DNA of 64,000 nt from Thermodesulfobacteriota bacterium (GCA_039714535.1 JBDLJC010000003.1:42178-106177), one strand, 5' to 3'; counted from the stretch's first letter, positions 14,706-41,716 are shown. The notes: generated by a model from the sequence alone, not told the origin. Translations and numbers: made by a program.

Positions 14706-17700
14706 TCAATAAAGCGCCGCCTCTCCTTCAACAACACGCAGATATTCTCCCAGTAAAACCCTCAAATCGGAGCTGTCAAAAGGCAGTTTCTCAACCTGCT
14801 GGACACATTGCACTAAGTGACGAATAACCTGCTCGCACTCTTTAAGAGAAGTTCTGGGCATATCGGTAAGGCCAGCCAGCCGATCAGCAATAACGGCCAG
14901 TTCATCAACGGAGGCTGGATATTGGCCGCCATAATCATCGAGCAAGTTAATGGCCTGCACCTGTAGCCCATCCGAATCTGGCTCAACCATAAAAGCATGG
15001 GTATAAACATCATACGGGACATAGCTGCCATCGAGGCCAAATGACACCTCGGTTTCTTTAAAGTATTCGCCACCCTGATCGGGAATATTCACAAAATAGC
15101 GATAAACAGCCTCTCCGCCGTCCTCGAAGCGGAATTGATATTCCAATCGTTCCTCGACAAGATCGAAAAGGGGTAAATAAATTAAACCTTCACCAAGTTT
15201 TTCGACCGCCAGAACATCCATACTCGAACCACGTAACTTTATTCTGGTCTCAAACAGGGCGATGCCACCGGCATCAGATCTAGCCTCCTGCGGCAGCAGA
15301 TATGACGCACCATTTCTTAACAGAGAGGCGTGTTCGGCTAACTCCCCGGACAGAGCCGATTCGATAATATTATAGGCAAAGAAAGCCGTCCGACCCTGGC
15401 CATACTCACCCAGCACCACGGCTGGCAGACCTTCTTCGGCCACGACCCCAGCCAGTTCACCACCATCGAGGGCCATCTTCAACATTCTGCCCTCGGCAAT
15501 CAGGGTCTGCTCCAGACCTATTGGACTCTCGGAAAGGAAGAGTTCGCGTTTACTCTCATTCATCGGCAGAGAACCGCTGAAATCAATCCCGAAAAGATCC
15601 TGCCAGATCGGATGAACGTTGTTGCCCCAGCTGGAGACCAAAAGCCCCATTCCCCGGTTCACGGCTTCACGCATCTCTCCCAGAAAACCGGCATCAAAAG
15701 GTGTATCCTGATTAATCACCATAGCCATATTGTAGATGCCTGAACGCAGCTCGCTCTTGAATTCATCCTTATCGGTGACCACACCAAGATAAATATCCGG
15801 GACGCCTAAAGCCTCCTCGAACAGCAATAGAAGATCATCACGGTCATAGGCTGGCCGGTTTTTGCCGTGCAAACCATCAGGATCTTCCGTCCAGACCAAT
15901 ACCCGGGGCAGATTCAAGATCCCGGTACTGACCTCAACACCGACCAGGGTAAAGGCCACCGATCTGACCGATTCGGTATTGGTTAGATTATCAACACTGT
16001 AGAAGTGGATGAGATGATCGCCAAAAGAGAGGTTCTCAAGGCGGAAGGGACTGTCATAGGTCCGCCAGTTGATCTGATCGTCAAAGCGATAATAGCTCGT
16101 ATTAACCCCGGAAAGCGGGTCAATTGCCGAGACAATCACCTGGGTCACTTTAGATAGGTAAGTACTGTCGTTACCCTCAAAACTCTTGCTGTTGAATTTG
16201 ACCCCGGTTACCGGTGGTTTGTTATCTAACACCACGGAATAGCTCTGCTCGGCTGCAACATTACCAAGCTGATCGGTGGACCGGTAGCCGATGGTATGGC
16301 CACCATCCGCCAGACCGGCGAGGTTGAGCGGAGCGTAGGCTGTCCAGCTGCCGCTATCGATTCGGTACTCGATTGCAGCAATGCCGGAGAAGACATCAGT
16401 AGCGCTTAAGGTAAATTCAGTTGCCCCCACCACATACATGGTGGTGTCCGTGCCAATATATTTCGGATCTCCAGTGGTGATAGTTGTTACCGGTGCGGTA
16501 TTATCCGCCACCACGGCAAGAGTCTGCTCAATTTCAATATTACCAAGCTGATCAATGGACCGGAATACGATGGTATGCGCGCCATCAGCCAGACCGGCGA
16601 GATTAAATGGTGCGTATGCTACCCAGCTGCCGTTATCAAGCCGGTACTCGGTGGTGGCAACGCCGGAGGAGGTATCAATTGCGCTTAAGGTAAACTCGGT
16701 GGCCCCACCTACATATAAAGTACCGTCACCAACCGTCTGCGGGCTACCAATACTGATCTCTGTTACAGGCGCGGCATTATCGACCATCACGGCAAGAGTC
16801 TGCTCAGTTTCAATATTACCAAGCTGATCAATGGACCGGAATGCGATGGTATGCGCGCCATCAGCCAGACCGGCGAGATTAAACGGTGCGTATGCTACCC
16901 AGCTGCCGTTATCAAGCCGGTACTCGGTGGTGGCAACGCCGGAGGAGGTATCAATTGCGCTTAAGGTAAACTCGGTGGCCCCACCTACATATAAAGTACC
17001 GTCACCAACCGTCTGCGGACTACCGATACTGATCTCTGTTACAGGCGCGGCATTATCGACCATCACGGCAAGAGTCTGCTCAGTTTCAATATTACCAAGC
17101 TGATCAATGGACCGAAATGCGATGGTATGCGCGCTATCCGCCAGACCGGCGAGATTAAACGGTGTATAGGCCAACCAGTTGCCGCTATCAAGACGGTACT
17201 CGGTGGTGGCAACACCCGAGAAGCTATCGAACGCACTCAAACTAAACACAGTTGATCCGCCCACATACAAGATGCCATCGGCCGCTGTATGCTTAGGATC
17301 ATCGCTAGTAATCTCAGTTACTGGTGCCGTATTGTCCACAATTACCGCCAGACTCAACTCATCCTCCACGTTACCCAGATTATCGGTTGAGCGGTAACCA
17401 ATGGTATGGCCGCCATCCGCCAGACCGGCGAGATTAAGCGGAGCGTACGCTGTCCAGCTACCGCTATCGATTCGGTACTCGGTGGTGGCAACGCCGGAGA
17501 AGACATCAGTAGCGCTTAAGGTAAACTCGGTTTCCCTAACCACATACATGGTGGTGTCCGTGCCAATATATTTCGGATCACCAGTGGTAATAGTTGTTAT
17601 CGGTGCGGTATTATCGACAACTACCGTCAAGCTCAGATCAGACTCCACGTTACCAAGCTGATCGGTGGACCGGTAGCCAATGGTATGCGCACCATCCAAC

Positions 17701-20027
17701 AGTCCGGCGAGATTAAACGGTGTGTAGATCAACCAGTTGCCGTTATCAAGCCGGTACTCGGTGGTGGCAACGCCGGAGGAGGTATCAATTACACTTAAGG
17801 TAAACTCGGTGGCCCCACCTACATATAAAGTACCGTCACCAACCGTCTGCGGGCTACCGATACTGATCTCTGTTACAGGCGCGGCATTATCGACCATCAC
17901 AGCCAAAGTCAGCTCGGCTTCAACATTACCGAGTTGATCTGTGGACCGGTAGCCAATGGTATGCGCGCCATCCGACAGGCCGACAAGAGTGAACGGGGCG
18001 TAAGCCAACCAAGTGGTGTTATCAAGCCGGTACTCAGTCGAAGCAATACCGGAGAAGCTATCGATAGCACTTAAGCTGAACTCGGTGGCCCCACCGACAT
18101 AGATAATACCGTCTGAACCAACCGCCTGCAGGCTGCCGATAGTGATAGTTGTCTCAGGCGCGCTATTATCAATCACAAATTCCAGCGTCTTATCAGCTTC
18201 CTGATTGCCTGCAGAATCAGTCGCACGATAGGTTAGTAAATTAGTGCCCTCGATTAATCCTTCCAAAGCAAACGGGGCAGAGTAATCTATCCATGAATCA
18301 GCACCATCCACCCGATATGCTATATCGGCTACCCCGGAGGCAACACTTCCGTTATCGGAAGATGTGAGTGAGATCAATGTCTGACCGGTTATATACAAGG
18401 TTCCGTCCGAACTAAATTGCGGTGTTCCCGTCTCAGCCGCACTCACAGGGGCAGTCCGGTCAAGTACAAAGTTAATCATCAGAGACGTGCTATTACCGGC
18501 CATATCCACTGCCGTTGCGGTCAAAGTATAAGCGCCCTCTTGAGTAATAGGCGTACCAGGCACATAAGGCTGGCCGTTCAGCAGATATGTTGTCAGTGCC
18601 TCATTGAGATGGAGATCATCAATGGTCAGATTCGGGATTAAATCACCATTGTAGAAACCACCTTGGACTACATTCTGCGGAATAATTACCGGCGCAGTCA
18701 AATCAATAGTAAACGAAATGCTTTGAGTTGTAGTGTTTCCGGCTGTATCTATAGCTGTTGCGGTCAGGGTATAAGTGTTTTCCTCGATTATGGCGGTACC
18801 CGCACTATAAGAGCTACCGTTCAAGGTTAAGCTTTGACTACCCGGATTCGTATCATCGACCGTTAGCTGCGGCGTAACGGCACCATTATAATGTGCCCCG
18901 TCCACGACGCCGGATAAAGTAATTATAGGATCAACATCATCGATAGCCAGGGCCGTAATTACCACACCGACACTTTCATTGCCGAAAGTATCATAAGCAC
19001 TGATGCGCAACGATTGTTCAACGCCGACAGCCAGCCCATCAACTTGCGCACTTGTTGCCTGGGGGGGGCGAACATCCGCCAACAAATCAGCGCCGAGATA
19101 AATGCGATAGCCCGCCGTATCAGCAGCCGTCGGCGGAGTCCAACTTAGAATAACCTGGCCGCTATCATCACCGGTTCTGTCAACCGCCCCAGCCGATGTT
19201 ACCTCGCCAGGAGCAACATTGACGGCCAGATCTATCGAGCTTTCACAATCAACTTCCCCGCCCGCAATAATGGCCTGTTCCAAGACAACATCAAGAGGAT
19301 GACTGTTGCCGGGATTGTCTATCTCATATACGTTGCCGACCACCAATGCGTTATCCGTCAGAATCTGGATAGATTCATCCAGAGAAAGTCCCAGTAACGA
19401 AGGCATAGGAGTAGTGCACCTTAAGGTAACAACACCTTCCTCATTGTAATCAAGCGGGTACGCCGGGCCACCGTCAAGCAGAAGAACATCCGTGAGAAAA
19501 ATCCTGATCTGTTCAGCTCCGACCAGTTCCCCTACTTTAAACATAAAACGGGCTACCGACCCGCTCCCGTCACTACGAATAGAGTCTTTGGTATGCGCAT
19601 AAGTAAAAAGGGCCGAGCCGTTCTCAAACGATTCATTATCGAGAACAAGGATACCGTTGTTTCCCTGCCCGTTAAGAAACATGGGACCAAGACCGGAACG
19701 GCTTGCCGTCGGCGCTGAGATTAAAAGGGGTGTGGAAACGGAAACATCAGCGCTTGTAGCCTGACCAAGATCATTCACTCCAGAGACAACGGCGCCGTCG
19801 GCAACGACATTAAGCCGGAACTGCACCGAGCCAAGCCCTTCGCTCGGGATTCCTTCGGCCATGATTTCGACTGAAAAGGACTCACCTGGCTCCACGCGCG
19901 CAGAGGAAGGTACAACCTTTACCCCGGCAGCCCAGGAATTTGCGGCAGCCAACAATAGCGACATAAAAAGGACCATAGTGCTCAACATCGCAACCTTGGT
20001 TTTATTCACTCGCCTTTCCGTTATCAT
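14706..20027 (-). CDS. Giant secreted modular protein. Domain order: signal peptide, cohesin-like domain, PASTA-like domain, FN3, three Ig-like domains, nine ~92-aa repeats, ~500-aa C-terminal region of unknown function
   Basis: Uninterrupted ORF. I prefer ATG 20027 (GAGAGGA lies 7 nt upstream) over the TTG at 20042. The signal peptide ends in ..AANSWA|AG. The cohesin-like segment is VKVVPSSARVEPGESFSVEIMAEGIPSEGLGSVQFRLN. The PASTA-like segment is LLGLSLDESIQILTDNALVVGNVYEID...VNV. The repeat consensus is TEYR(L/I)D.G.W..Y.PF.L.GL.DG.HTI.YRS.D.LGN.E. Confidence 0.85.
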   Translation of the reverse strand: MITERRVNKTKVAMLSTMVLFMSLLLAAANSWAAGVKVVPSSARVEPGESFSVEIMAEGIPSEGLGSVQFRLNVVADGAVVSGVNDLGQATSADVSVSTPLLISAPTASRSGLGPMFLNGQGNNGILVLDNESFENGSALFTYAHTKDSIRSDGSGSVARFMFKVGELVGAEQIRIFLTDVLLLDGGPAYPLDYNEEGVVTLRCTTPMPSLLGLSLDESIQILTDNALVVGNVYEIDNPGNSHPLDVVLEQAIIAGGEVDCESSIDLAVNVAPGEVTSAGAVDRTGDDSGQVILSWTPPTAADTAGYRIYLGADLLADVRPPQATSAQVDGLAVGVEQSLRISAYDTFGNESVGVVITALAIDDVDPIITLSGVVDGAHYNGAVTPQLTVDDTNPGSQSLTLNGSSYSAGTAIIEENTYTLTATAIDTAGNTTTQSISFTIDLTAPVIIPQNVVQGGFYNGDLIPNLTIDDLHLNEALTTYLLNGQPYVPGTPITQEGAYTLTATAVDMAGNSTSLMINFVLDRTAPVSAAETGTPQFSSDGTLYITGQTLISLTSSDNGSVASGVADIAYRVDGADSWIDYSAPFALEGLIEGTNLLTYRATDSAGNQEADKTLEFVIDNSAPETTITIGSLQAVGSDGIIYVGGATEFSLSAIDSFSGIASTEYRLDNTTWLAYAPFTLVGLSDGAHTIGYRSTDQLGNVEAELTLAVMVDNAAPVTEISIGSPQTVGDGTLYVGGATEFTLSVIDTSSGVATTEYRLDNGNWLIYTPFNLAGLLDGAHTIGYRSTDQLGNVESDLSLTVVVDNTAPITTITTGDPKYIGTDTTMYVVRETEFTLSATDVFSGVATTEYRIDSGSWTAYAPLNLAGLADGGHTIGYRSTDNLGNVEDELSLAVIVDNTAPVTEITSDDPKHTAADGILYVGGSTVFSLSAFDSFSGVATTEYRLDSGNWLAYTPFNLAGLADSAHTIAFRSIDQLGNIETEQTLAVMVDNAAPVTEISIGSPQTVGDGTLYVGGATEFTLSAIDTSSGVATTEYRLDNGSWVAYAPFNLAGLADGAHTIAFRSIDQLGNIETEQTLAVMVDNAAPVTEISIGSPQTVGDGTLYVGGATEFTLSAIDTSSGVATTEYRLDNGSWVAYAPFNLAGLADGAHTIVFRSIDQLGNIEIEQTLAVVADNTAPVTTITTGDPKYIGTDTTMYVVGATEFTLSATDVFSGIAAIEYRIDSGSWTAYAPLNLAGLADGGHTIGYRSTDQLGNVAAEQSYSVVLDNKPPVTGVKFNSKSFEGNDSTYLSKVTQVIVSAIDPLSGVNTSYYRFDDQINWRTYDSPFRLENLSFGDHLIHFYSVDNLTNTESVRSVAFTLVGVEVSTGILNLPRVLVWTEDPDGLHGKNRPAYDRDDLLLLFEEALGVPDIYLGVVTDKDEFKSELRSGIYNMAMVINQDTPFDAGFLGEMREAVNRGMGLLVSSWGNNVHPIWQDLFGIDFSGSLPMNESKRELFLSESPIGLEQTLIAEGRMLKMALDGGELAGVVAEEGLPAVVLGEYGQGRTAFFAYNIIESALSGELAEHASLLRNGASYLLPQEARSDAGGIALFETRIKLRGSSMDVLAVEKLGEGLIYLPLFDLVEERLEYQFRFEDGGEAVYRYFVNIPDQGGEYFKETEVSFGLDGSYVPYDVYTHAFMVEPDSDGLQVQAINLLDDYGGQYPASVDELAVIADRLAGLTDMPRTSLKECEQVIRHLVQCVQQVEKLPFDSSDLRVLLGEYLRVVEGEAALY
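15950..18450 (-). repeat. Nine tandem coding repeats with a 276-bp (92-aa) period inside the 1,773-aa gene. The central units are nearly identical.
   Basis: The string CACGGCAAGAGTCTGCTCA(A/G)TTTCAATATTACCAAGCTGATCAATGGACCG recurs at 16512, 16788 and 17064, an exact 276-bp period. The antisense ORFs 16555-16827 and 16831-17103 differ by 1 aa in 90. The outer units are progressively diverged and mosaic. Confidence 0.9.
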
Positions 20028-20083
20028 CACAAATCCTCTCAAAAGGAATAAATCTAAAATATTTTTAAAAAACGCGGATCTCG

Positions 20084-21058
20084 TTATTCCGCGTTGGTAT
20101 TTCCGTACTCAGTGGCAAACCGGGCAAAATCCCGCGCATCTATAATATCTTCCGCAACCACGGTCTCCATCTGGGCCGGAATTAAATTGTGATCAGGATT
20201 AAAGTCGCCGTCGTTGGCAGAATTACGATAATGGGATTTAAAAATGCCGAAGTCGGTTGCGTCGACAACACCGTCAAGATTGAAATCGGCAAAAAACCCC
20301 TTAACAGATTCAGAAACACTGCCTGCGTCGCTGTCTGCGGCAAACTTTCGATAATGGAGCAGGGTCGAGAAGGTGCCGCCGCGATAGATCCGAAGCATGG
20401 CTTTTTCGCCGCCCTGCAAATCAAGACTGGCCCCGTCCGTGCCGAATAAATTATTGAGATCCAGTACGCCTTCCGGTGCACTGATCCCCTCGCCGACGAA
20501 AGAACTGAGAGAACCATAGCCACCGTCCGTTTCCAGCAGCACCAGATCTCCTAAACCGGGAACCAGGGAAGCATCACCAGGTCGGATATAAACCTTGAAA
20601 CTCATAAGTTCGTTCGTTAACGGCAACAGTCCACCGCCCGACGCCTGCCGGTAACTTTTAACAATCCCAGCGGTAGTCACTTCCAGAAGAGAGGAGTAGC
20701 CAATACTGGCAGGAGCATCCGGGTCTTTGCTTACGGTACGCGCATAATAGGTTGTTGACGGCGCCAGTCCGGTGGCCCGGATTTTCATAATCCCCTTCTG
20801 TTGCGCAGCTGCCGCAACCTGGGCCGAAGCATCAGCCATTGGCGTCAACAGAACATCTTCACTAATCTGTCGCTGCATTGCCGCATCCAGGTAGATCTCC
20901 ACCTCTGGTACTGCCGCAACATCGGTCATCCAGACCACGGCAAAAGAAGTCGGCGTCACGTCAGTCACCCGAACGCTCACCGTTTCCGGCACGGCCAAAG
21001 CATTGCCCCGAAGGATCACGGCAAACAATAAGCCCAGTGCGGTTATAGATATCTTCAT
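20084..21058 (-). CDS. Secreted protein with an N-terminal FN3-like domain and a C-terminal dockerin-like module
   Basis: The start is set at ATG 21058 (MKISITALGLLFAVILRGNALA signal), which forms an ATGA overlap with the upstream stop. The C-terminus has the Ca-loop/F-hand pattern DFNLDGVVDATDFGIFKSHY, followed by a second degenerate segment AEDIIDARDFARFATEYG. Confidence 0.75.
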   Translation of the reverse strand: MKISITALGLLFAVILRGNALAVPETVSVRVTDVTPTSFAVVWMTDVAAVPEVEIYLDAAMQRQISEDVLLTPMADASAQVAAAAQQKGIMKIRATGLAPSTTYYARTVSKDPDAPASIGYSSLLEVTTAGIVKSYRQASGGGLLPLTNELMSFKVYIRPGDASLVPGLGDLVLLETDGGYGSLSSFVGEGISAPEGVLDLNNLFGTDGASLDLQGGEKAMLRIYRGGTFSTLLHYRKFAADSDAGSVSESVKGFFADFNLDGVVDATDFGIFKSHYRNSANDGDFNPDHNLIPAQMETVVAEDIIDARDFARFATEYGNTNAE

Positions 21059-21882: not shown

Positions 21883-21892
21883 CCTTCGATTT

Positions 21893-25363: not shown

Positions 25364-25399
25364 TGAACCCTCTCTTTGATGTACCGATTAAGAATGAAA

Positions 25400-25595: not shown

Positions 25596-25613
25596 GTAAG
25601 CGAAGACTCCGAA
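25596..25613 (+). repeat. Dispersed intergenic motif copy (GGTAAGCGAAGACTCCGA)
   Basis: Lies between the PBP4-like gene stop and the 1,156-aa operon. Confidence 0.5.
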
Positions 25614-26985: not shown

Positions 26986-27107
26986 AACCCGGCCACAACC
27001 TTTTTTATTGCAATAACCTCCAACACATTAAAAACTATTAACATTTTGTTCATAGTAATCTTGCCATGTTGTAGTGTATGCCTGTTATTGTTGGATATCT
27101 TTATTAA

Positions 27108-27695: not shown

Positions 27696-27721
27696 TTATT
27701 ATTAATAAATAATTTCCAACA

Positions 27722-33700: not shown

Positions 33701-36700
33701 GAACGGCCCTGCGATCTGCGGGCCGGTCGCATCCTGACGGGGCTCGACACTGATAGTCGATACAACAGGGTTTTCCAGACCAAAGGTGTTGACGACGGTC
33801 ACCCCATACTGATAGGTCGTGCCGTTAGTCAGACCGGGATCGGTATAGGTCGTTTTGTTCGTATCAACGGCCAGCTGCATAGCACCGACATCTGTTTGGA
33901 GATCAGCGGATTGCAGACGGTAGACGCGATAATTTTTGAGATACGGGGAACCGGACGCAGCCCAACTAATGGTGGCCTGATTTTTACCCGGTTCGGCAGC
34001 CAGAGCGGCAGGATTATCGAGGCGGGTGACGGCCTCGGTGACAACCCCGCCACTTTCGGGATTCTCCGCGTCTTTGCCGGTCAGTTTAAACCTGTACAGG
34101 GTGGCGTCAGCCAGGTTGTTCAGCGTATGGGAAATCGCTTCACTGCCGAGGGATATACCCGTATCAGGGTATCCTGGCCCATTATCTACATAAAGGAGCT
34201 GATCGACAAGATCACCGTTGCTACCGGCATCGATACTGGCGGTCCATTGCAGGTTAATACCGTTGCCGTTGGCTGTACTGTAGGTTGGTGTCGCAACAAA
34301 ACCGCTAACTTCCGTCGGCGGCATGGTGTCGACCGGAAAGGCAGTGGCAAAATTAACGGTGGCGGATGAATTGCCGGCCAAATCAACCGGGATTACCACG
34401 AAATAATAAGTAGTACCTTCAGTCAAGCCTTCGATTACGAATGATTTGGTGCCGGAGTTTGTCGTAGCGATTGCCTGCAGTCCGCTGACATCCGTTATCT
34501 CGGAGGTGCTGTAATAAATCCGGTAATAGGCCAGATCGACGGGCTCTTCGTAGTTGTTCCAACCCAAGCGGACCTGATCGCCGCGCCCGGAACCATTGGC
34601 CATCAACACCCCCGGCCCAAGAGCGGCAGGCGGGGCGGCATCATAAATCAAATCAAGAGTCTTGGTGGCAGTATTACCGAGTGCATCGGAGGCTCTAAAG
34701 ACCAGGTGGGTGGCAAGCCCTTCGACTAGGGTGATCTCGTGATTCCAGGAAACACCCAAGTCATCGGCGTTGATAATTGTTTCGCCATTCAGGGTAACGC
34801 TGCACCCCGGTTCCTTGGTTCCTGCCAGGGTCTGCGTTGCGGAGGCGGCCTGATCCTGGTATTCGTCAATGGTAAATACCGGCGGCGTGGTATCGAGCTC
34901 TACTGTAACAGTGGTTTCGGGGAAGGAGTCATTCCCGGCAAGATCACGGGTTGTTACCTTAAGGATGTTTTCACCTTCCTTGAGCGGATAACTGGTACTC
35001 CAGTCGGTTTGATCCGAAACATCGACCTTCTTGACGCCGTTGATCACGATACCTGTTTGAAGTTGCTTGCTACCGCTAAGGACCTGGCTGGAAACGGTAG
35101 TTGGAGAATCAACTGAATCTACCGTTGGTGGGGCCGGGGCTGCTGCATCAAGGACAAAAGTGCCGGTATCCTGAGGAGTCATCTGATTACCAGCCACATC
35201 CCCGGCGTTAGAAACTTCGACAACATAATCACCATCGCCGGTGGTTTCGGTAAAGGCTACAGTACCTCTCCAGGTATTGTGATTTCGCCAGGAACCGTTG
35301 ATCGAGAGAGACTGGCTGCCCCCCGTTCGGTGCAAAACCACAGACGGTTGCAATGAGGTGTTCATTGACTCATTAAACTTAATTGTGAAGGTTACTGTTT
35401 CGACCTTATGCGGGCTGGGCGGACTCATAGTCAGAGACTCAACCTGCGGAGCTGTTTTGTCCACGGTAAAACCGAAAGAAACCGTGCTGGTATTGCCAAC
35501 TTTATCAACGGGGTTAAGAGTGACGGTAACAATCCCTTCTGCCAGCTCCGTTTGGTGGATAAATTCGAGGGCGTCGTTCTCGCTGTTTACGCCCCAGGTT
35601 CCAGTTACTATTGAACCACTGGAATCTTCAACCGTAGCGTTTTCATGGGAGCGGGTGAGGTCAGGGCCTGACCCGTAATTGGGATCGCTGAGGAAAACGG
35701 ATATTTTACCGGTTTGATTTGTTCGGGAATTTATTGCCGGAATTGTGGATGAAACAGTCGGCCCCTGATTGTCCTTGATGATCGTAACTGGTTTGGGCTG
35801 ACAAATATTACCGTGGCTGTCACCAGAGGTTAAATCAAGAGTATTTCTGCCATTATTCAGATCAACCTGAATCTCCCAACTGGTAGCGTTATCAAGCAGA
35901 ATGGTTTCCGTACCGTCAACAATCAGTGATGAATCGGCTTCTTTTGTGCCCCGCAGAACAAATTGGGACTCGCTGGTGTAAAGAAACAGAGCCGGGTCAA
36001 CAGTCGGTTGGGCCGGAGGAGTAAGGTCTCCGGTTAAAACACTAAGTTCTTGAGAATAAGGGCTGTCGTTTGACAGCTTGTCGACGGCTTTTGCTACATA
36101 ATAATATATTGTGTCAGTTGCATGGGCAGCGGTGTCACTAAAAGTAGTTGCACCGGTCTGGCCAAGATATTGGTAACCGGACCCTTTGGTAATGCTGCGA
36201 TATATACGATATATATCAATGTCACATTCCGTATTCGGCTGCCACTTAAGAATGACCTTGTCATGGTCAAGGGTAGCGGTTAGTCCTTCCGGGGCGACCG
36301 GGCTGCCGACCAAGTTGGAAACCGCGCTCTTCTCAATGGAGAACGAACTTCCAAGACCTGTATAACCAATGGCTTTAACCGCGACAAAGTATGTCTGGCA
36401 ACCTGCCAGATTATTAAGTCGAATAGTGCCGGATGTTGTGGTCAGGGGCGGTGAATATTGACCGCTTTCCGTGCCGTGATATACCTGATATTCCTTTATG
36501 TCCGGCGAAAGGTTATTAGACCAACTGACATCTATATAGCCATCGCCGCTAGTTAAATTAATACTGGCGGGCGCTACCGGCGGCGCCAGGGCCACGCTAA
36601 TCGGATAATCGACCGAGGTTGGATTGCCCAATGAATCATAGACCTTGACGGTTAATGTATAACTGCCGTCACCGACTTCGATAATATTCCAGGCCCAGCT

Positions 36701-39700
36701 GTATTCCGGTCCGCTCGAATCGGTTGCCTGCAGGGAGTTATCCAGATAAAACTCAACATGACTGACCCCGGAGAAATCGGCGGCGGCAACCCTAAAACTT
36801 CCCTGTCTAATGAGGGTTGGAGTTGTGGCAATATCGGCGGTGTTATAGGTAAGAGCGCTAATGACCGGGCCATTCACGTCTTTAAGATTGCTGAGAACCG
36901 AGGTTACCTGTTGTCGCTCACCGCCGGCGCTATCAACACTGGTCACCGCCAAATAGTATTTCGTATCCTGACTCAAACCGGTCATCGCACTACTGGTACC
37001 GGTGACAGACTGGACCGGGGTCATTCCCGCCACTGAGGTGAAAGGGGTTTCACTCACATAAACATTGTACTGTTGGAGATGGACCGCCGGTTCAACCGGG
37101 CTCCAGGAGATGCCTATGTTGTCGACATTTACAATAGTCGTAACCCCGGTCGGATTAGCCAGCCGGAACGATATAGCAACCTCTCCCGAGGCCGGGCCGA
37201 AACCGGTCCGATTGAAAGCCTTGGCGCTTAAAAGATTGTCACCGATATTCAGAGAGTAATTAAAACTGAATTGGCCATTATCATCGACTTTGGCGGTGAC
37301 GCCGGTGCTGACCCCATTGTTGAACAATTCGACGTCGGTGAATTTTTCGGCTGTGCCGTTGACCGTGATATCAGGACTGCTGAAAACTGCTCCGGTTACA
37401 GGCAGGGAAATAACGGGAGCATCCGGTAACGCCAAAACGACGCTGAAATTCAGATCGGTGGTTGAAAGATTGCCTACCGTATCGTAGGCCTTGATGGTCA
37501 GGAGATGTTGACCATCACTCAGCGCCACGATGTTCAGAAAACAGTTAAAATCGGGCCCGCTGTCATCCGTACAGACAAGACCACCGTCAACCAGGAATTC
37601 GACCCGATCAACACCGGAAAAATCGGTGGCGCTAACACTTATCGTGGGAGGTATCGTAAATTCATATCCTTCCGTCAAATTATCAATTCCGGCCAGAAGA
37701 TCGGTGACCAGCGGACCATTGACATCTTTTAGATGGCCCACGACCGGCACAACGGTTTTCTTTTCACCATCGGCATAATTAACACTGGTGACCGCTACAT
37801 AATAGTTGGTGTCAATGGCGAGACCGTTAAGGTCAACCGTCGCAACTGTGACGGTCTGGACCGGCGTCATATCAACAACGGAGGTAAAAGGTGTTTCACT
37901 TCGATAGATATTGTAATGATCGAGAATATCGACCGGGCTGACCGGAGCCCAGGAAAGAGTCAGGTGATCTACTTCGGAAACCAGAGTAAGCCCGGTCGGA
38001 TTATCGAGAAGAGTATTAAGGGTAGCGGTGACCTCGTTGCTATGGGGACTGTCTCCGGCATTATTCCTGGCGATTGCCGTAATAGTGTTTTCACGCTCAG
38101 TCAAAGTAACCGGAATAGCAAACGACCCATCCGCTTTGTTCGGAGTCGGATTGCCATAGGGCTGACCGTTCAGCAGGATGACAATATTCATCTCCGGCTC
38201 AGCAGTACCGCTGACCGTAATCGCACCAGCGGTGAAGATATCACCACTGACCGGGTGGGTAATAACCGGTGCCTCAGGAAGAATTACCGCTAGTTCCAGA
38301 GAATATGTGACCGAAGATTTGTTGTCAAAAGAATCAAAGGCTTTAATCGTTAAGGTATATATGCCATTCAGTAGACCAGCCATATCAAACTGATAAGTAT
38401 ATGCACTAGCACCACTGGTGTCGGCCAGAACAACCGAGTCGTTTATGGAGACTTCCACCAGCTTGACATTATAAGGATCGTGGACATTAAAAGTGATCGG
38501 TCCCGAACCGTATATGATCATATTATTGTTTACAGGGTCGCCATCAAAGAGGATACCGGTTATCTCCGGCAATTCTGGCTCGAAATCCTCAAGAAGCCAG
38601 ATTTCTGTGAGTGCCGCTCTGGTAGACAGGAGGGGGTTATCATTTACGAAACTTAGGTTGATATTCCCGGTTGTATAATAATCAGAAGGTATGGAGAACT
38701 CATGTTGCACCGGCATCATAGTTGGCATTACCATGGCAGAATGAACCACTTTGCCTGGTCCAGCATTTATACTCTGCAGACTTCCTTCTTCACCGTCACC
38801 ATTAAAATAGCTGGTCCTGATTTTATATCTCTTCTCAGGATCGAGGTCTGTATAGCCCACTTCGACTGCATTAGAACCCCAGGCTATAGTTCTGTCCGGT
38901 CTGAGGCTAATTGGATCCCAGAGATCATCTCTGACTCCAGCATCCAGAATTGGTTCAGTTATCGAACCAGCTGAAGAGCCAGCTGCAAAACTATAATTAA
39001 CATAGGACATTTCGGTTGCGACTGTGTCCAGATAATCATCAAATGAAACATTATCGGATATTTTTCCTCCGGTACCATCTGGATTACTAGTGAGGTTATA
39101 GGGTCCGCTACCATCGAAATCCCCCCACCAGTTTCGGGTGGCATCAGCGACATTAGCGGTCTGGTTCTTGACAGCCAGCCCTCGGTTCATGAAAATCTGG
39201 TTGTTGGAGATCTCTGCGTTTGCAGTTCCCAGAAGTTCAACACCATCGGAAAGGTTGGTTGATATGTGGCTGAAACTGATGTCCGCATTGGAAGCCCCCT
39301 CCAACCTGATGCCATCACCATTATTTCCCCAGATCCTGCTACCGATTATATTCAGGGTGCCGTTGATACTCCTGATACCATTTGACGAACTCTTCGATAT
39401 TTCGGTGTTTTCAATACGTGCACTAACCACTCCGTTGAAGTAGAGAGCCCCGCTCCCATTTCCACCGGCATAAAGAATCTTGGTGTTATTAAAGATCGAT
39501 CCTTCACCAAATAAAGAAGCATTGAGGGTAATTCCTTTCCAACTACCATTTACCGGATAGGTCGCCATAACATCTTTGTTAGTGTCACCGCCATGATAAT
39601 CATCCTTGATAGTAGTAAAGATGATCTTTTCGTTGAAAGTCGCGTCGGCAATCAGGGCGCCGTCAACATCGACTACCAAGGCCCCACCCTGAAACTTTAC

Positions 39701-41716
39701 AATGACTCCGGGATCTATCTTAAGAGATGTATGAGTTGGAACTCTAAGGGTTCCAAAGATTATATATACACCGATCTCATTGCCAGTTCCCTTACCCCAA
39801 ACCTGCAGATTCTTGTCCGTCTGCAGGTTGTTGCCATGGACTTCTAAGAAGTTGTTAACATTAGGTGTGAGTGTATTTGTGCTGTCAGGAAGTGCGCTGG
39901 CCGGAATACGAAATGCAATGAGATTACCCGTAATAATATTATTGGTAATTTCCGGCGCATTCTGACCATCCGTAAAATAGATCCCGTAATTAGTATTATT
40001 CCTGATCGTGTTGCCGTCTATTGTCGGCCGAACATAGCCAACAGTGTCAGGTGTATAATGAGATACGTAGATTCCATGCCGGCCATTACCTTCAATAGTA
40101 TTATTACGGTCAACAGGAAGACTGGCTGCATGATAATAAGCATAATGATTAATGCCATCGAGGGTATTACCGGTAATTGTGTTGTTCTCGATAACCGGAT
40201 TTTCATTGTATGTGTAAATACCATGACTGCTGTTGTTGGTGATCGTGTTCCAGGAAATTAAAGGGGTGCTGATATGTGTGTAAATACCATATGAACTGCC
40301 GGCGGTTATCACGCTATTCTTTATAGTGACATCTGTATTATTCATATAGATGTTGCCAGACCCTCCGGATCCGCCATAGCTAACCAAGACATTGGCAAGG
40401 ATTGAATCAGGCGAACCATTCACGAAATTCAATCTATCCCAACTACCGGCTGTTGCGGTAGTCGCGCCACCATCGCCGTTACTGTCCCCGCCGTATTTAT
40501 CATCTTTGATTGAGGTAAATACAATCTGGTCGGCCCCAGAGGCATCGGCAAGCAATGTGCCCTTTACTGTCAGGTTTCTACCCGGCGCAAACTTGACAAT
40601 CGTCCCGGGCTCTATCGTCAACTTGACCCCTGTGGCTACTGTGGCATTACCACCAGCCTGATAATAGGTATTGCCGGTCTCAAAAACCAGATCATGATCA
40701 AGCTGGTTGCCCCAATACTCGAGATGATTATCTATAGTATTGGGAGAAAGGGTGTTGTTGGCTGAAGGACCGGGTAAAGAGGAAAACGGCAGCCGGAAGA
40801 CTTTTTGATTACCCGTAATAATATTATTGGTAATTTCCGGCGCATTCTGACCATCCGTAAAATAGATCCCGTAATTAGTATTATTCCTGATCGTGTTGCC
40901 GTCTATTGTCGGCCGAACATAGCCAACAGTGTCAGGTGTATAATGAGATACGTAGATTCCATGCCGGCCATTACCTTCAATAGTATTATTACGGTCAACA
41001 GGAAGACTGGCTGCATGATAATAAGCATAATGATTAATGCCATCGAGGGTATTACCGGTAATTGTGTTGTTCTCGATAACCGGATTTTCATTGTATGTGT
41101 AAATACCATGACTGCTGTTGTTGGTGATCGTGTTCCAGGAAATTAAAGGGGTGCTGATATGTGTGTAAATACCATATGAACTGCCGGCGGTTATCACGCT
41201 ATTCTTTATAGTGACATCTGTATTATTCATATAGATGTTGCCAGACCCTCCGGATCCGCCATAGCTAACCAAGACATTGGCAAGGATTGAATCAGGCGAA
41301 CCATTCACGAAATTCAATCTATCCCAACTACCGGCTGTTGCGGTAGTCGCGCCACCATCGCCGTTACTGTCCCCGCCGTATTTATCATCTTTGATTGAGG
41401 TAAATACAATCTGGTCGGCCCCAGAGGCATCGGCAAGCAATGTGCCCTTTACTGTCAGGTTTCTACCCGGCGCAAACTTGACAATCGTCCCGGGCTCTAT
41501 CGTCAACTTGACCTGATCAACAACCGTAACACTGGATGTAACATGATGAACATCTGAGTTGGACCAGTATGTATCCTGGGAAATTGTCCCACCTTCATTG
41601 ATAGCAGCCACGCTATTTGAATAAAGGAACAACGGCAAAAAAGAACATAGACAAAGGACAAATAATTTCCGCCTGATCATCATTCTTCTCTTTTTGGTAT
41701 TTATGGCACTTGTCAT
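27722..41716 (-). CDS. Giant (4,664-aa) secreted modular protein. It has an N-terminal duplicated right-handed beta-helix (PbH1/NosD-like) region, dozens of Ig-like/FN3 modules, and MG/alpha2-macroglobulin-like and carboxypeptidase-regulatory-like domains. These are followed by a Gly-rich linker, a Cys-rich repeat, a PKD-like domain and an unknown ~210-aa C-terminal domain.
   Basis: Single 13,995-nt ORF. The signal is KKRRMMIRRKLFVLCLCSFLPLFLYSNSVAA. The beta-helix repeats follow the pattern N(N/T)I.GN..(H/Y)GIY. There are multiple FN3-like units (..L.WAPV....L..Y.IYRSETPF). Three super-repeats of about 850 bp (Ig, Ig, FN3) start near 38575, 37725 and 36880. The linker is GGSGGGGYAGGWQGGGGGAPG. 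The Cys-rich unit is CRDDDACTINERCEDGDCV. The PKD-like segment is WRLGNGESRYTSGFSYKYPEPGEYRVSVNV. Confidence 0.9.
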   Translation of the reverse strand: MTSAINTKKRRMMIRRKLFVLCLCSFLPLFLYSNSVAAINEGGTISQDTYWSNSDVHHVTSSVTVVDQVKLTIEPGTIVKFAPGRNLTVKGTLLADASGADQIVFTSIKDDKYGGDSNGDGGATTATAGSWDRLNFVNGSPDSILANVLVSYGGSGGSGNIYMNNTDVTIKNSVITAGSSYGIYTHISTPLISWNTITNNSSHGIYTYNENPVIENNTITGNTLDGINHYAYYHAASLPVDRNNTIEGNGRHGIYVSHYTPDTVGYVRPTIDGNTIRNNTNYGIYFTDGQNAPEITNNIITGNQKVFRLPFSSLPGPSANNTLSPNTIDNHLEYWGNQLDHDLVFETGNTYYQAGGNATVATGVKLTIEPGTIVKFAPGRNLTVKGTLLADASGADQIVFTSIKDDKYGGDSNGDGGATTATAGSWDRLNFVNGSPDSILANVLVSYGGSGGSGNIYMNNTDVTIKNSVITAGSSYGIYTHISTPLISWNTITNNSSHGIYTYNENPVIENNTITGNTLDGINHYAYYHAASLPVDRNNTIEGNGRHGIYVSHYTPDTVGYVRPTIDGNTIRNNTNYGIYFTDGQNAPEITNNIITGNLIAFRIPASALPDSTNTLTPNVNNFLEVHGNNLQTDKNLQVWGKGTGNEIGVYIIFGTLRVPTHTSLKIDPGVIVKFQGGALVVDVDGALIADATFNEKIIFTTIKDDYHGGDTNKDVMATYPVNGSWKGITLNASLFGEGSIFNNTKILYAGGNGSGALYFNGVVSARIENTEISKSSSNGIRSINGTLNIIGSRIWGNNGDGIRLEGASNADISFSHISTNLSDGVELLGTANAEISNNQIFMNRGLAVKNQTANVADATRNWWGDFDGSGPYNLTSNPDGTGGKISDNVSFDDYLDTVATEMSYVNYSFAAGSSAGSITEPILDAGVRDDLWDPISLRPDRTIAWGSNAVEVGYTDLDPEKRYKIRTSYFNGDGEEGSLQSINAGPGKVVHSAMVMPTMMPVQHEFSIPSDYYTTGNINLSFVNDNPLLSTRAALTEIWLLEDFEPELPEITGILFDGDPVNNNMIIYGSGPITFNVHDPYNVKLVEVSINDSVVLADTSGASAYTYQFDMAGLLNGIYTLTIKAFDSFDNKSSVTYSLELAVILPEAPVITHPVSGDIFTAGAITVSGTAEPEMNIVILLNGQPYGNPTPNKADGSFAIPVTLTERENTITAIARNNAGDSPHSNEVTATLNTLLDNPTGLTLVSEVDHLTLSWAPVSPVDILDHYNIYRSETPFTSVVDMTPVQTVTVATVDLNGLAIDTNYYVAVTSVNYADGEKKTVVPVVGHLKDVNGPLVTDLLAGIDNLTEGYEFTIPPTISVSATDFSGVDRVEFLVDGGLVCTDDSGPDFNCFLNIVALSDGQHLLTIKAYDTVGNLSTTDLNFSVVLALPDAPVISLPVTGAVFSSPDITVNGTAEKFTDVELFNNGVSTGVTAKVDDNGQFSFNYSLNIGDNLLSAKAFNRTGFGPASGEVAISFRLANPTGVTTIVNVDNIGISWSPVEPAVHLQQYNVYVSETPFTSVAGMTPVQSVTGTSSAMTGLSQDTKYYLAVTSVDSAGGERQQVTSVLSNLKDVNGPVISALTYNTADIATTPTLIRQGSFRVAAADFSGVSHVEFYLDNSLQATDSSGPEYSWAWNIIEVGDGSYTLTVKVYDSLGNPTSVDYPISVALAPPVAPASINLTSGDGYIDVSWSNNLSPDIKEYQVYHGTESGQYSPPLTTTSGTIRLNNLAGCQTYFVAVKAIGYTGLGSSFSIEKSAVSNLVGSPVAPEGLTATLDHDKVILKWQPNTECDIDIYRIYRSITKGSGYQYLGQTGATTFSDTAAHATDTIYYYVAKAVDKLSNDSPYSQELSVLTGDLTPPAQPTVDPALFLYTSESQFVLRGTKEADSSLIVDGTETILLDNATSWEIQVDLNNGRNTLDLTSGDSHGNICQPKPVTIIKDNQGPTVSSTIPAINSRTNQTGKISVFLSDPNYGSGPDLTRSHENATVEDSSGSIVTGTWGVNSENDALEFIHQTELAEGIVTVTLNPVDKVGNTSTVSFGFTVDKTAPQVESLTMSPPSPHKVETVTFTIKFNESMNTSLQPSVVLHRTGGSQSLSINGSWRNHNTWRGTVAFTETTGDGDYVVEVSNAGDVAGNQMTPQDTGTFVLDAAAPAPPTVDSVDSPTTVSSQVLSGSKQLQTGIVINGVKKVDVSDQTDWSTSYPLKEGENILKVTTRDLAGNDSFPETTVTVELDTTPPVFTIDEYQDQAASATQTLAGTKEPGCSVTLNGETIINADDLGVSWNHEITLVEGLATHLVFRASDALGNTATKTLDLIYDAAPPAALGPGVLMANGSGRGDQVRLGWNNYEEPVDLAYYRIYYSTSEITDVSGLQAIATTNSGTKSFVIEGLTEGTTYYFVVIPVDLAGNSSATVNFATAFPVDTMPPTEVSGFVATPTYSTANGNGINLQWTASIDAGSNGDLVDQLLYVDNGPGYPDTGISLGSEAISHTLNNLADATLYRFKLTGKDAENPESGGVVTEAVTRLDNPAALAAEPGKNQATISWAASGSPYLKNYRVYRLQSADLQTDVGAMQLAVDTNKTTYTDPGLTNGTTYQYGVTVVNTFGLENPVVSTISVEPRQDATGPQIAGPFIVSSQGDIPLTQNQVLARTVTLKANGTDNESAMARVELYIDSSLVQSTTGSSVSYLWNLVAASDGNHSVKVVAYDEHGNFTETSKTVTVSLAPPNVPVYGSHTVEAITPDYLVTIRGTADLYTTVTLKVNDQITGETNTAADGSWTFTSVPLAEGDNNIYLQATHRGGASAFSMPHIITVDTGAPPAPVDLVSKVLPGGTIQFNWQSGPGELPTGYNLYSDQASLPTSVTVGMQPLNNTPIPYLFKEIIPADDTASYYAVTALDGAGNESGLSTQINVASDGIAPAATGIMFAFNGGTPASTVVAGPGTINVSMTVSEPLQEMPFLSLEPQIGSPIVLSPVKVDELNYSAVLEIDPAGPHGPTVWKFSGKDLVGNRGNSQGQGPTLDVRGPVATITTPTVLQQIGTESLTVDFSFDEAPVDIPVMTLFDATGNSAAFNGPVMAGDDLHWTAQIDISPLAEGEATFKLVNAIDNFGNTGETVATGEKLYLYTDTPPAPAAPTDLTATSKLGGKIDLSWSRSVDRVQAYKVYRRLAGVAVEIGTTTGLTFSELPSADGAWNYSVSAVGLLGTEGDRCAEVEGVSDRTGPAVPSGLSLSLDGDGVTAVWDVPQDEIPASYRLYRAASSFASVGSRKPVVVVSTTEAIDTSPSTSQIFYGVTSVDALGNESALSTSVELAIPVAPVNSLNLTRHEDAGPVLAWQSDAGSIQGYYVYRNGNRVNSAPTPSTTYSDGFYDGNGATYGVSVVDDQGNESPIRDVRLPALDIDIPADTVLRRGVIEKISLALTGGEDLTISKLNFKVGSNVETIKPGPISLVAGEAKIIEKVAATALDALDSVAVVTTVTLASAPGTSVVLTRTSAVPVAAAGSAFEVFNEPLVRGAEAQVRIKVNNLGSAQLELLTSERGGLTDEVSVYLRDQDGNLLAKGFLDQRTGSAVVNSNGYASARLEPGGSFLSEPITFQVPVNAPAKVLIEARVAKTYYHYDWPDQVTAPGFSRTVQSEIADLPYFAAATTDKEVYHMGKPVTISGTALSSIDGLPVANVPVRIGVSTRGFDRFFNVDTDAEGNFSHTFTPAANEAGTYSVWATHPELNDRDVQATFNIIGLLVSPSVFNLNLAQGRSYNVPVNIRNLGNVAITGLTMVSEASQGLTATIINSGDTIIGGGENQRVYLKIIAADDAPQTGYASLTVDTDAGLGGKVNVNVGMVTLTPQIRTYPSYIDTGMMRGTQKMVNFTISNSGQEVLRNARIDGPSIPWLDLTIDKLLGDINAGSSKDIGIMLRPGETVAPGIYDDSLVIYSDNHVPFRFNVQVTVSSDAVGSVYFDVQNEIYEKLSGASITLQHQQLLDLRYTLRTASDGTVMLNDIAEGRYSYNVSSPGCVPFSGSFVVEPGLTSTVHLALEVNMVEIEWSVTPTVIEDKYEVTITQTFETNVPTPVLIAEPAGITLPEMGVNEVFNGEFTVKNHGLIAVYDVGIDFPSSYGDFDIEVMKEFIPDRIEPMETIRVQYRVTKRDRTILSSFKSLFEQVTGFGGGNCFSYVTIKLSSSVIICPNTAFERIISRLVDFRMAIPTLCPPSVPAGSAVAPSGGSGGGGYAGGWQGGGGGAPGQTTPIAVTDPCECMDCRDDDACTINERCEDGDCVWDPHPPEAEIESLVRLSGEDAEWFEEEITIVVGETLDFSARNIFAFEGECDLETLEWRLGNGESRYTSGFSYKYPEPGEYRVSVNVECVSCDESKVAIPLKSNGQSTIRVVVLEDDLCWDFVDGQLIPKPDGTKIDEFFCRECVGGELKPIPDELADKTSFKIVEPPILNPAKKYIKFLNAELSLDGAIQVDYDKTLSCCENKELLLPVIEGGISGKIVGKIKAPFYQFPLKFVSAFAYVEGKGEVEIKAHIQANLCDLPDWYDGTGGFDFTASGGAEGKIAGGILKIGGSINSGLKMVGPVEDGIYKGVPRFKGVYFKGEAVLADGLKKYSYKGFYVVPKEKWDSVDWDLRKYFN
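39922..40628 (-). repeat. Copy 2 of a 707-bp perfect direct repeat inside the giant gene (beta-helix block)
   Basis: Appears identical to 40807-41513 at an offset of exactly 885 bp. The edges were read directly: GATTACCCG... on the low side and ...CAACTTGACC on the high side. The encoded 235 aa (VKLTIEPGTIVKF...NNIITGN) are identical in both copies, and the shadow ORFs 40018-40224 and 40903-41109 are identical. Confidence 0.9.
40807..41513 (-). repeat. Copy 1 of the 707-bp perfect direct repeat inside the giant gene
   Basis: See copy 2. The two copies are separated by a unique 178-bp spacer (40629-40806) encoding QKVFRLPFSS...ATVATG. Confidence 0.9.

Follow-up and report, generated by a model that had tools for sequence, protein, structure and literature searches.

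A putative cell-surface assembly cassette with cohesin-like and dockerin-like modules in a Thermodesulfobacteriota genome

The locus and its core proteins

The window analyzed here is a 64,000-nucleotide (nt) stretch of a Thermodesulfobacteriota bacterium genome (GCA_039714535.1, JBDLJC010000003.1:42178-106177), in which seven consecutive minus-strand genes, g1 to g7, occupy positions 41716 down to 14706. An open reading frame (ORF) scan found all of them co-oriented and, together with inspection, agrees with the original prediction of seven signal-peptide genes in this block. Comparison with related genomes shows the seven genes to be a coherent, co-inherited unit, a cassette spread horizontally across several phyla. 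Its invariant core consists of G4, a dead-rhodanese/CxxC protein, a dockerin-like protein, and a rod protein with cohesin and PASTA modules (families in related loci are written in capitals). The genes are listed below, with product lengths in amino acids (aa).

27722-41716, minus strand: g1, giant exoprotein of 4664 aa
27108-27695, minus strand: g2, signal-peptide protein of 195 aa
25630-26985, minus strand: g3, PBP4/DacB-type peptidase of 451 aa
21893-25363, minus strand: g4, core protein of 1156 aa
21055-21882, minus strand: g5, secreted double rhodanese-like protein of 275 aa
20084-21058, minus strand: g6, 324 aa counted from ATG, with a dockerin-like C terminus
14706-20027, minus strand: g7, rod protein of 1773 aa counted from ATG

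By inspection, all seven products carry Sec-type leaders with a basic n-region, a hydrophobic core, and a small-x-small site; the cleavage sites, from g1 to g7, are SVA/A, SHA/L, VAG/F, VQA/A, LFA/A, ALA/V, and SWA/A. The three distal junctions, read directly from the sequence, are as first described: the g4 TGA is followed by 10 nt including GAAGG and then by the g5 ATG, g5 and g6 are joined by an ATGA overlap, and 56 nt lie between the g6 TAA and the g7 ATG. The g3-g4 and g2-g3 gaps measure 266 nt and 122 nt, respectively. Domain scans agree with the earlier statements that the block 41716-14706 contains no glycoside hydrolase, secretion, regulator, or transposase gene and that its large proteins are built from beta-helix, immunoglobulin (Ig)-like, fn3, and propeller modules.

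The g4 protein has at least 676 homologs at an E value of ≤0.001, and the 120 listed are full length (1113 to 1180 aa), with 48 to 68% identity to g4. An N-terminal region designated G4N is followed by an OmpL47-type barrel, a FlgD-Ig domain, a beta-propeller, and a C-terminal domain; FlgD_ig, the OmpL47-type barrel, and the propeller repeats were identified with Pfam and NCBIfam, and the propeller matches TolB and Tricorn_N weakly.

23924-25363 (aa 1-480), minus strand: G4N, a chain of Ig-like sandwiches (AlphaFold2, alignments)
25280-25282, minus strand: Cys28, the sole g4 cysteine (cysteine census)
22454-23326 (aa ~680-970), minus strand: beta-propeller (repeat matches)
21896-22441 (aa 975-1156), minus strand: C-terminal tandem alpha/beta domain (AlphaFold2)

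The AlphaFold2 model of G4N is a chain of beta-sandwiches with a predicted local distance difference test score (pLDDT) of 80.7, and its only Foldseek neighbors in the Protein Data Bank (PDB) are pilins, integrin legs, and transglutaminase barrels, at template modeling (TM) scores of ≤0.22. The C-terminal 197 aa are modeled as two tandem alpha/beta units (pLDDT, 93.1), for which Foldseek gave no significant match in the PDB (best E value, 0.08). The G4 C terminus is a conserved ...DGW.P, without a transmembrane segment or basic tail. Cys28 lies at mature position ~5 in a motif, A-C-A-[KR]-V-S, that is near-invariant in the 120 orthologs and recognizable in distant G4N proteins. A role of Cys28 as a lipoprotein anchor was rejected, as the motif reads [HEDQ]-[AST]-A-C and there is no lipobox L-[AS]-[GA]-C. 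The G4 cysteine is located 12 residues past the h-region and 4 to 5 past the AxA site, and distant G4N members have L, F, or I at position -1.

The g5 protein matches the Rhodanese family PF00581 with an E value of 2.5e-13 (50.8 bits; cutoff, 22.2), and, contrary to what had been stated, PBP4 is accordingly not the only protein of the block with an enzyme-type domain, though the catalytic Cys of g5 is absent. The active-site loop reads LVLVDNSLG, and the catalytic Cys is never present in the 40-member alignment of the g5 family, where the position is D, N, G, or another residue. Because of this absence, g5 is regarded as a rhodanese-homology protein and not as a sulfurtransferase. A second, degenerate rhodanese-like half follows the first, and the C terminus carries a CxxC that is kept even in distant lineages.

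21088-21099, minus strand: C-terminal CxxC (CPTC) of g5, containing its only two cysteines

In g6, an fn3-like (Pur_ac_phosph_N-like) domain and a conserved middle domain precede a C-terminal dockerin-like module, whose first loop, DFNLDGVVDATD, is canonical and whose second segment is degenerate yet conserved. The g7 protein combines a weak Cohesin match with Big_13, Big_3_3, and 11 OmpL47-type barrels (Pfam, NCBIfam). The window contains one cohesin-like and one dockerin-like module, and each cassette likewise has one of each.

20090-20305, minus strand: dockerin-like module of g6 (profile match)
19407-19922, minus strand: N-terminal cohesin-like module of g7 (family profile)
19221-19403, minus strand: Cys-bracketed PASTA-like module of g7 (family profile)
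16207-18171, minus strand: OmpL47-type tandem repeats of ~279 nt in g7 (repeat scan, NCBIfam)
14709-15935, minus strand: conserved C-terminal domain of g7, ~400 aa (family alignment)

All G6 proteins terminate in a dockerin-like module. The g6 profile matches dockerins in the PDB (best E value, 0.0017), and among the G6 orthologs Dockerin_1 is found in 15 of 19 (best E value, 3.7e-4) and Pur_ac_phosph_N in 18 of 19; the g6 homolog of Methylomonas koyamae matches at an E value of 5e-32. The cohesin-like and PASTA-like pair starts all of the G7 proteins (21 of 21), with two conserved cysteines flanking the PASTA-like module. Against the PDB, the G7 profile matches the PASTA domains of PknB/Stk1 (E value, 1.9e-5) and the ScaC cohesin (E value, 0.0035), and the orthologs contain PASTA in 13 of 14 cases (best E value, 4.6e-9) and Cohesin in 7 of 14 (best E value, 8.9e-7). 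At least 11 G7s share the C-terminal domain, for which the PDB yielded no informative match, with weak hints of GATase1-like or GH42M similarity. A word-indexed protein search with the g7 N terminus (19173-19937, 255 aa) returned nothing despite homologs in 21 loci, which is probably an index limitation.

Conservation, plasmid carriage, and the link to type II secretion

A scan with one genome per species identified 131 related loci, 80 of which were kept; their ORFs were called, searched with the window proteins, and clustered, with flanks limited to 10 kb (loci carry numbers with the prefix L). The order PBP4-G4-rhodanese-like-G6-G7 is kept in 24 loci with full-length G4, where PBP4 is counted in 19, the rhodanese-like protein in ~22, and G6 and G7-like proteins in 21 each. 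Three more loci, found by exact-protein lookup (L081 to L083), share the G4-rhodanese-like-G6-G7(PASTA) core, and the core order is thus seen in ~27 loci from Geobacterales, Desulfuromonadales, Nitrospirota, and others. Hosts of full-length G4 include Geobacteraceae, Desulfuromonadaceae, Geothermobacter hydrogeniphilus HR-1, Geotalea toluenoxydans, Nitrospirae/Thermodesulfovibrio, a Desulfobacterales metagenome-assembled genome (MAG) with 68% identity, and unclassified "Deltaproteobacteria"; reduced variants occur in an Acidobacteriota MAG and others (L017, L018, and L021). None of the window's flanking genes was found in any related locus. Across 12 loci, pairwise divergence in one of the five core families correlates with that in the others (Mantel r, 0.31 to 0.76), and a g5-type gene adjoins G4 or G4N in 41 loci. 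The co-occurrence check in related genomes, which had been set beforehand as the refutation test, revealed no independent distribution, and the recurrence of the PBP4-G4-rhodanese-like-G6-G7 order in ~20 or more genomes with unrelated flanks upholds the view of a unit rather than a collection of unrelated adhesins. The unit-hood, breadth, and plasmid carriage of the cassette are considered solid.

Outside the close loci, conservation of g4 is confined to its N-terminal ~480 aa (G4N), which are joined to C-terminal parts of various kinds. A total of 2,732 representative clusters at 50% identity contain G4N (1,760 at an E value of ≤1e-30), usually at the N terminus of proteins of 400 to 7,500 aa. 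Loci with G4N only were found in Desulfobacterales, Myxococcales, Xanthomonadales, Methylomonas, Sedimenticola, and others; beta-helix or G1core giants (described below) are often present in them, and distant family members are altogether without PBP4 and PASTA. G4N was also observed inside a 5297-aa "Calx-beta domain-containing protein" on plasmid pCC7120alpha of Nostoc sp. PCC 7120 (L084 3910-19803), where the gene is flanked by transposase genes; the family is thus found in a model cyanobacterium.

The g3 protein matches Peptidase_S13 (E value, 2.5e-55; 188.4 bits; cutoff, 22.8) and TIGR00666 (145.6 bits; cutoff, 107.8), and the catalytic motifs SxxK (SLNK), SxN (SLN), and K[ST]G (KSG) are kept in 19 of 19 cassette PBP4s. 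It is predicted to be a PBP4/DacB-type D,D-carboxy/endopeptidase of the Peptidase S13 family with intact catalytic motifs. The PBP4 gene lies directly upstream of G4 in 19 loci, and in 8 loci there is a 4-nt overlap between its stop and the G4 start. PBP4 is thus the usual neighbor ahead of G4, with which it is translationally coupled. A PDDEXK_3 gene (PD-(D/E)XK nuclease family, ~115 to 141 aa) recurs in or beside the cassette in unrelated lineages: it is located between PBP4 and G4 in L008, L014, and L023, after G4N in L034, and upstream of G4 in L083. Where inserted, this gene breaks the PBP4-G4 overlap and gives larger gaps.

In the wider family, the slot that PBP4 has in close loci is held by a ~300-aa Transglut_core protein, which adjoins the G4N gene in 35 loci and is nearly always directly upstream. 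Searching this transglutaminase back against the window identified a remnant directly upstream of g1.

41754-42156, minus strand: transglutaminase-like pseudogene remnant (match to the c2-family hidden Markov model [HMM]), ending ~35 nt before the g1 ATG

Positions 213 to 301 of the 302 in the HMM match 41757-42023 (iE, 1.6e-31), with the last ~90 residues intact, and positions 193 to 212, including the catalytic-Cys motif GDCTE, match 42025-42084 in another frame. The remnant therefore has a frameshift near 42024; the N-terminal ~190 aa are missing, and the C-terminal third is kept. The decayed gene appears to mark descent from the wider family, which has an intact upstream copy, and because it lies directly upstream, the locus reaches past the previously assigned end at 41716. 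The original prediction had overlooked this pseudogene, as well as the lone conserved G4 cysteine and the significance of the rhodanese-like/CxxC protein.

The g1 protein matches beta-helix, NosD, Big_7, Big_13, fn3, Glucodextran_B, CarboxypepD_reg, and PKD families (Pfam, NCBIfam). Its signal peptide is followed, toward the C terminus, by three beta-helix modules (aa ~40-1050) and then by Ig/fn3/Big arrays. Next comes a conserved "G1core" (aa ~3225-4320), which is CARDB/MG2/CarboxypepD_reg-like and has a Cys-rich end, and the protein closes with a low-GC, PKD-bearing, nonconserved tail (aa ~4320-4664). The MG2 match is weak (17.6 bits; cutoff, 32.8), a homolog search with the G1core retrieved just 10 proteins, and PDB sequence searches with g1, g4, and g7 gave only FlgD-Ig plus one Ig-repeat match. 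G1core-like proteins lie ≤10 kb from G4 or G4N in 20 loci and are upstream in Desulfuromonadales loci. The lengths and repeat numbers of g1 and g7 vary widely among relatives.

The g2 gene has a very low G+C content (0.27 to 0.30), and its product has no Pfam or NCBIfam family match. A profile of small proteins from L003, L006, L025, and L015 matches g2 with an hmmsearch E value of 4.4e-10 and an hhalign probability of 94.5% over 178 columns, which identifies g2 as a probable divergent member of a ~200-aa family encoded directly after the G1 gene in Desulfuromonadales loci. No relation was seen to the c9 small-protein family, which was also tried. With g1-like and g2-like genes, the core, and PBP4 all syntenic, all seven genes therefore have syntenic counterparts. 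A sharp G+C trough at 27001-28750 (0.27 to 0.43, versus ~0.5 or more around it) covers g2 and the g1 tail, as if this part of the cassette had been replaced or inserted in a lineage-specific manner.

G4N is present on plasmids as well. The mobilizable plasmid pFW12EY of M. koyamae encodes homologs of g1, g4, g5, g6, and g7 and an intact transglutaminase on one strand. The g6 homolog with its dockerin-like end comes first, followed by an Ig protein with a cohesin-like N terminus and a dockerin-like C terminus, a short "cohesin domain" protein with a PEP-CTERM-like tail (tail recognized by eye), a 4657-aa beta-helix protein collinear with g1 aa 22-4202, the rhodanese-like protein, the intact transglutaminase, and finally a 723-aa protein made of G4N and the G4 C-terminal domain.

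Genes of the type II secretion system (T2SS) adjoin or enclose the cassette in six loci. In L019, a complete gsp operon (pseudopilins, K, L-like, M, C, and secretin D) is located directly upstream on the same strand, and in L081 (uncultured Desulfuromonas) GspF/GspE-like genes are directly downstream; the more distant loci L061, L046, and L030 have adjacent GspE/F and secretin genes. In Eleftheria terrae (NZ_CP106952.1; L087), the G4N, rhodanese-like, and transglutaminase genes bracket a run of gspG, gspF, gspE, a secretin gene, and three pseudopilin genes, and genes for G1core-like giants and a c8-like protein are located upstream; all of these make up one 33-kb co-oriented block, and RefSeq annotates a PEP-CTERM sorting-domain protein beside the cassette. 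The E. terrae secretin (L087 30025-32409) is 46 to 48% identical over aa 21-592 to the secretins of L046 and L061; its ~200-aa C-terminal extension is a "cohesin domain" in RefSeq, for which neither a phmmer search of the PDB nor hhalign with cohesin profiles gave confirmation. A genuine cohesin there would tie products with dockerins to the secretin. No T2SS operon accompanies the cassette in the window, as it does in those relatives; the machine needed for export is probably encoded at another site in the genome, and the earlier description of the system as self-contained is doubtful.

Two further observations concern the related loci. The c8 protein, a secreted protein of ~460 aa without a Pfam or NCBIfam family, accompanies the cassette in six close loci (after G7 in L002, L007, L010, L016, and L019 and upstream in L081) and is absent from the window; the c8-like protein of E. 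terrae (L087 6456-8000) is 57 to 65% identical to c8 in its N-terminal ~80 aa. In the draft genome of Geotalea toluenoxydans JCM 15764 (L025), several ORFs each cover only parts of G4, the rhodanese-like gene, and G6, whereas G7 is intact, which reflects either sequencing frameshifts or cassette decay.

A candidate surface assembly and its alternatives

With a confidence that falls a little short of even, we favor the reading that the locus is a complete, conserved mobile cassette whose products are cargo and accessory proteins of a dedicated assembly in the cell envelope or on the surface. The cassette probably builds a cohesin-dockerin-linked, wall-associated surface structure exported by a type II secretion machine, for which we infer a structural or adhesive role (sheath, matrix, or contact). 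All of the products would cross the inner membrane via Sec. The G6 dockerin may plug into the single cohesin at the base of G7, and the disulfide-stapled PASTA module, together with the PBP4 D,D-endopeptidase, may anchor this base in the peptidoglycan or thread it through; the enzyme encoded at the PBP4 position in other lineages has the transglutaminase fold, to which cell-wall endoisopeptidases also belong. The CxxC of the rhodanese-like protein could handle the N-terminal Cys of G4 in a mixed disulfide, an oxidation, or a chaperone step, and the g1 and g7 giants would form the extended outer part, adhesive or matrix-forming. Passage through the outer membrane would be provided by a T2SS-type machine encoded elsewhere, such as relatives encode beside or around the cassette.

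Several points weigh against this reading. PASTA and PBP4 work on periplasmic peptidoglycan, whereas T2SS cargo is found outside, which is a topological tension. The share of loci with adjoining or enclosing secretion genes is low (6 of ~87, within flanks of 10 kb), and there is no gsp gene within the 64-kb window. PBP4 is missing from ~8 of the 27 close loci and from all distant ones and is therefore not essential to the core. The cohesin-, dockerin-, and PASTA-like modules of the original prediction are supported at the family level and by profile matches to the PDB, whereas the window proteins themselves score below the Pfam gathering values (g6 Dockerin_1, 15.3 bits against 22.9; g7 Cohesin, 23.4 against 24.1; g7 PASTA, 17.8 against 23.2). 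The Cys28/CxxC chemistry is purely conjectural. In addition, the conservation of G4 (~50% identity across phyla and a constant length) exceeds that of usual adhesins and hints at a machine or enzymatic role.

It is unlikely, though this alternative survives best, that the products form a purely periplasmic, peptidoglycan-associated complex in which PBP4, G4, and G7 serve as a remodeling or surveillance scaffold and the giants stay in the periplasm. The intact catalytic motifs of PBP4 and its translational coupling to G4, the weak TolB/Tricorn_N match of the G4 propeller, and the conserved PASTA modules are consistent with such a complex, as are the presence of Sec leaders only and the lack of an outer-membrane anchor or secretion gene in the window. 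However, proteins of 1,800 to 4,700 aa with beta-helix, Big, fn3, and OmpL47 arrays typically occur at the surface or outside the cell, six loci have T2SS operons beside or around the cassette, a PEP-CTERM protein lies beside the E. terrae cassette and a PEP-CTERM-like tail (by eye) occurs in M. koyamae, and distant family members dispense with both PBP4 and PASTA.

A bolder form of the surface assembly, to which we give somewhat less credence again, is an undescribed Gram-negative surface fiber or organelle. Its G4N-marked subunits would be matured by an acyl-enzyme peptidase (transglutaminase-like in the wider family, PBP4 here) and a dead-rhodanese CxxC partner, docked by cohesin and dockerin, tied to peptidoglycan by PASTA, and extruded by a specialized type II secretion/pseudopilus machine whose secretin would be cohesin-bearing in at least one lineage.

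More doubtful is covalent fiber assembly, in which the acyl-enzyme peptidase and the CxxC protein would link G4-type subunits to one another, via the N-terminal Cys or by isopeptide bonds, into a pilus-like polymer extruded by a T2SS-type machine, analogous to sortase-built pili. Pilins of the Gram-positive and chaperone-usher types and transglutaminase beta-barrels are the best structural neighbors found for G4N, at low TM scores; G4 has a single near-invariant Cys at mature position ~5 and its partner protein a conserved CxxC, the enzyme gene is immediately upstream of the G4N gene in 35 loci, and in E. terrae the genes sit among pseudopilin genes. On the other hand, the substrate of PBP4 enzymes is D-Ala-D-Ala and not protein, the transglutaminase gene has decayed here in an otherwise intact cassette, neither a sorting motif nor the thioester motif C.EQ is present, and the Foldseek matches are generic Ig chains with TM scores of ≤0.22.

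A cellulosome-like degradative complex, in which G7 would scaffold dockerin partners while the g1 beta-helix and PBP4 attack polysaccharides or foreign walls, is very unlikely. The cohesin and dockerin modules would suit it, the right-handed beta-helix and NosD matches in g1 recall pectate lyases and NosD, and a PBP4 endopeptidase with PASTA could target prey walls, but each cassette contains just a single cohesin and a single dockerin, no catalytic domain accompanies the dockerin in G6, PBP4 and g1 bear no dockerin, and Pfam and NCBIfam revealed no glycoside hydrolase, lyase catalytic signature, or carbohydrate-binding module (CBM). Chance adjacency of unrelated adhesin and housekeeping genes, including an ordinary dacB, is scarcely credible: although the proteins are made of common, promiscuous domains, g1 and g7 are variable in length and repeat number among relatives, and the g3-g4 and g2-g3 gaps permit separate promoters, the order is kept across phyla with unrelated flanks, relatives show translational coupling, the genes are carried jointly on a plasmid, and the core genes diverge in a correlated manner.

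Comparison with known systems and features around the locus

None of the closest known systems is fully matched in the defining features tested. Peer et al. reportedly surveyed, in 2009, cohesin and dockerin modules outside cellulolytic bacteria. Like such noncellulosomal assemblies, the cassette has a dockerin-like module (DxNxDGxVDxxD loop) and a cohesin-like module on a neighboring large Ig-rich protein, contains no carbohydrate-active enzymes, and is presumed to have a surface or adhesive role. Unlike them, its pairing is fixed at 1:1 in a conserved operon and its cohesin is fused to PASTA, and the PBP4/transglutaminase-like enzyme, the inactive rhodanese-CxxC protein, and G4N belong to no described system. 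Cohesin/dockerin adhesin clusters, but not this cassette, have been noted in syntrophic sulfate reducers and anaerobic methanotrophic (ANME) archaea (PMC10553843).

The cellulosome of Clostridia shares the modular cohesin-dockerin docking and anchoring logic, and M. koyamae even has a cohesin-to-dockerin protein beside a short cohesin protein. However, the cassette has no multicohesin scaffoldin, dockerin-tagged hydrolases, CBM, or surface layer homology (SLH) anchor, and its hosts are diderm; membership was rejected for want of a multicohesin scaffoldin and of any glycoside hydrolase or CBM in the Pfam and NCBIfam scans. In the LapA/LapG system of Pseudomonas fluorescens, a periplasmic transglutaminase-like cysteine protease acts on a giant repeat adhesin, and the cassette family resembles it in placing a secreted transglutaminase-fold enzyme (in the wider family; a pseudogene here) beside giant Ig-repeat exoproteins. 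It differs in that the adjoining export machine is of the T2SS type; the enzyme matches Transglut_core. This candidate was rejected, with type I secretion system genes, an RTX C terminus, and a LapD GGDEF/EAL receptor all absent from the window and related loci.

Alpha-2-macroglobulin/PBP1c pairs likewise co-encode a very large, secreted multi-beta-sandwich protein (here with weak MG2/bMG3 matches) and a penicillin-binding protein, whereas the PBP of the cassette is a class C type 4 endopeptidase and not the bifunctional PBP1c. This candidate too was rejected: the C.EQ thioester is found in none of the seven proteins, there is no A2M domain order, and the MG2 match is weak. In its Sec leaders on all products and the gsp genes (pseudopilins, E, F, L/M/C-like, and secretin) beside or around six related loci, the cassette resembles a T2SS with co-encoded cargo; it departs from this pattern in having no gsp gene in the window and in its conserved accessory proteins that do not look like cargo (dead rhodanese-CxxC protein and peptidase). 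Sortase-assembled pili were dismissed, with no sortase among the seven window proteins or the scanned proteins of related loci and no LPXTG-type sorting signal in G4, and an S-layer was set aside solely since no S-layer family was among the Pfam and NCBIfam matches.

The earlier impression that this combination is undescribed stands: full-text literature searches found no description of the cassette, and NCBIfam has no names for the accessory protein families. What would be new is a secretion-linked cohesin-dockerin surface assembly with an undescribed hallmark trio of G4N, dead rhodanese-CxxC protein, and peptidase, whose function is hypothetical. If this reading is true, the cassette encodes a widespread, plasmid-transmissible, and wholly unstudied envelope structure in metal- and sulfur-cycling anaerobes (Geobacterales, Desulfuromonadales, Nitrospirota, and Desulfobacterales), methanotrophs, Xanthomonadales, myxobacteria, and Eleftheria. 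In these groups, surface structures determine how cells attach to minerals, electrodes, and syntrophic partners. The cassette would also make cohesin-dockerin docking a structural principle of diderm envelopes, place PASTA modules at work in Gram-negative periplasms, and mean that T2SS-type machines come with dedicated maturation factors. Carriers in culture (Geothermobacter hydrogeniphilus HR-1, Geotalea toluenoxydans, Methylomonas koyamae Fw12E-Y, and Eleftheria terrae) make the system directly testable.

Two local features were noted within the block.

39922-40628 = 40807-41513, minus strand: perfect 707-bp direct duplication within g1, offset 885 nt
20067-20093, minus strand: hairpin CGCGGA-(9 nt)-TCCGCG followed by T6, spanning the g6 stop (sequence read)

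The duplication copies one g1 beta-helix module exactly and is either a very recent tandem duplication or a MAG assembly artifact. The g6/g7 hairpin resembles a terminator or attenuator and could reduce g7 expression relative to that of g6. Promoter and terminator scans of the locus were at chance level, and the 2 kb upstream of g1 gave no Rfam match.

The block lies between housekeeping genes, with ilvBN, leuA, asd, panCD, xseA, and tRNA-Pro on one side and HU, HcyBio, pheA, moaA, tsaD, hslUV, xerC/D, ispA, and dxs on the other. The ~1 kb between the transglutaminase remnant and the HU gene (42157-43106) has no notable ORF, no Rfam match (E value of ≤1), and no similarity to any related-locus protein, and it is possibly the decayed rest of ancestral upstream genes. 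The tRNA-Pro(CGG) gene is located at 14178-14254, 450 nt past the end of g7, and neither an integrase nor direct repeats were found beside it. Its position, the nonconserved flanks, and the plasmid-borne relatives fit the acquisition of the 27-kb block as an island.

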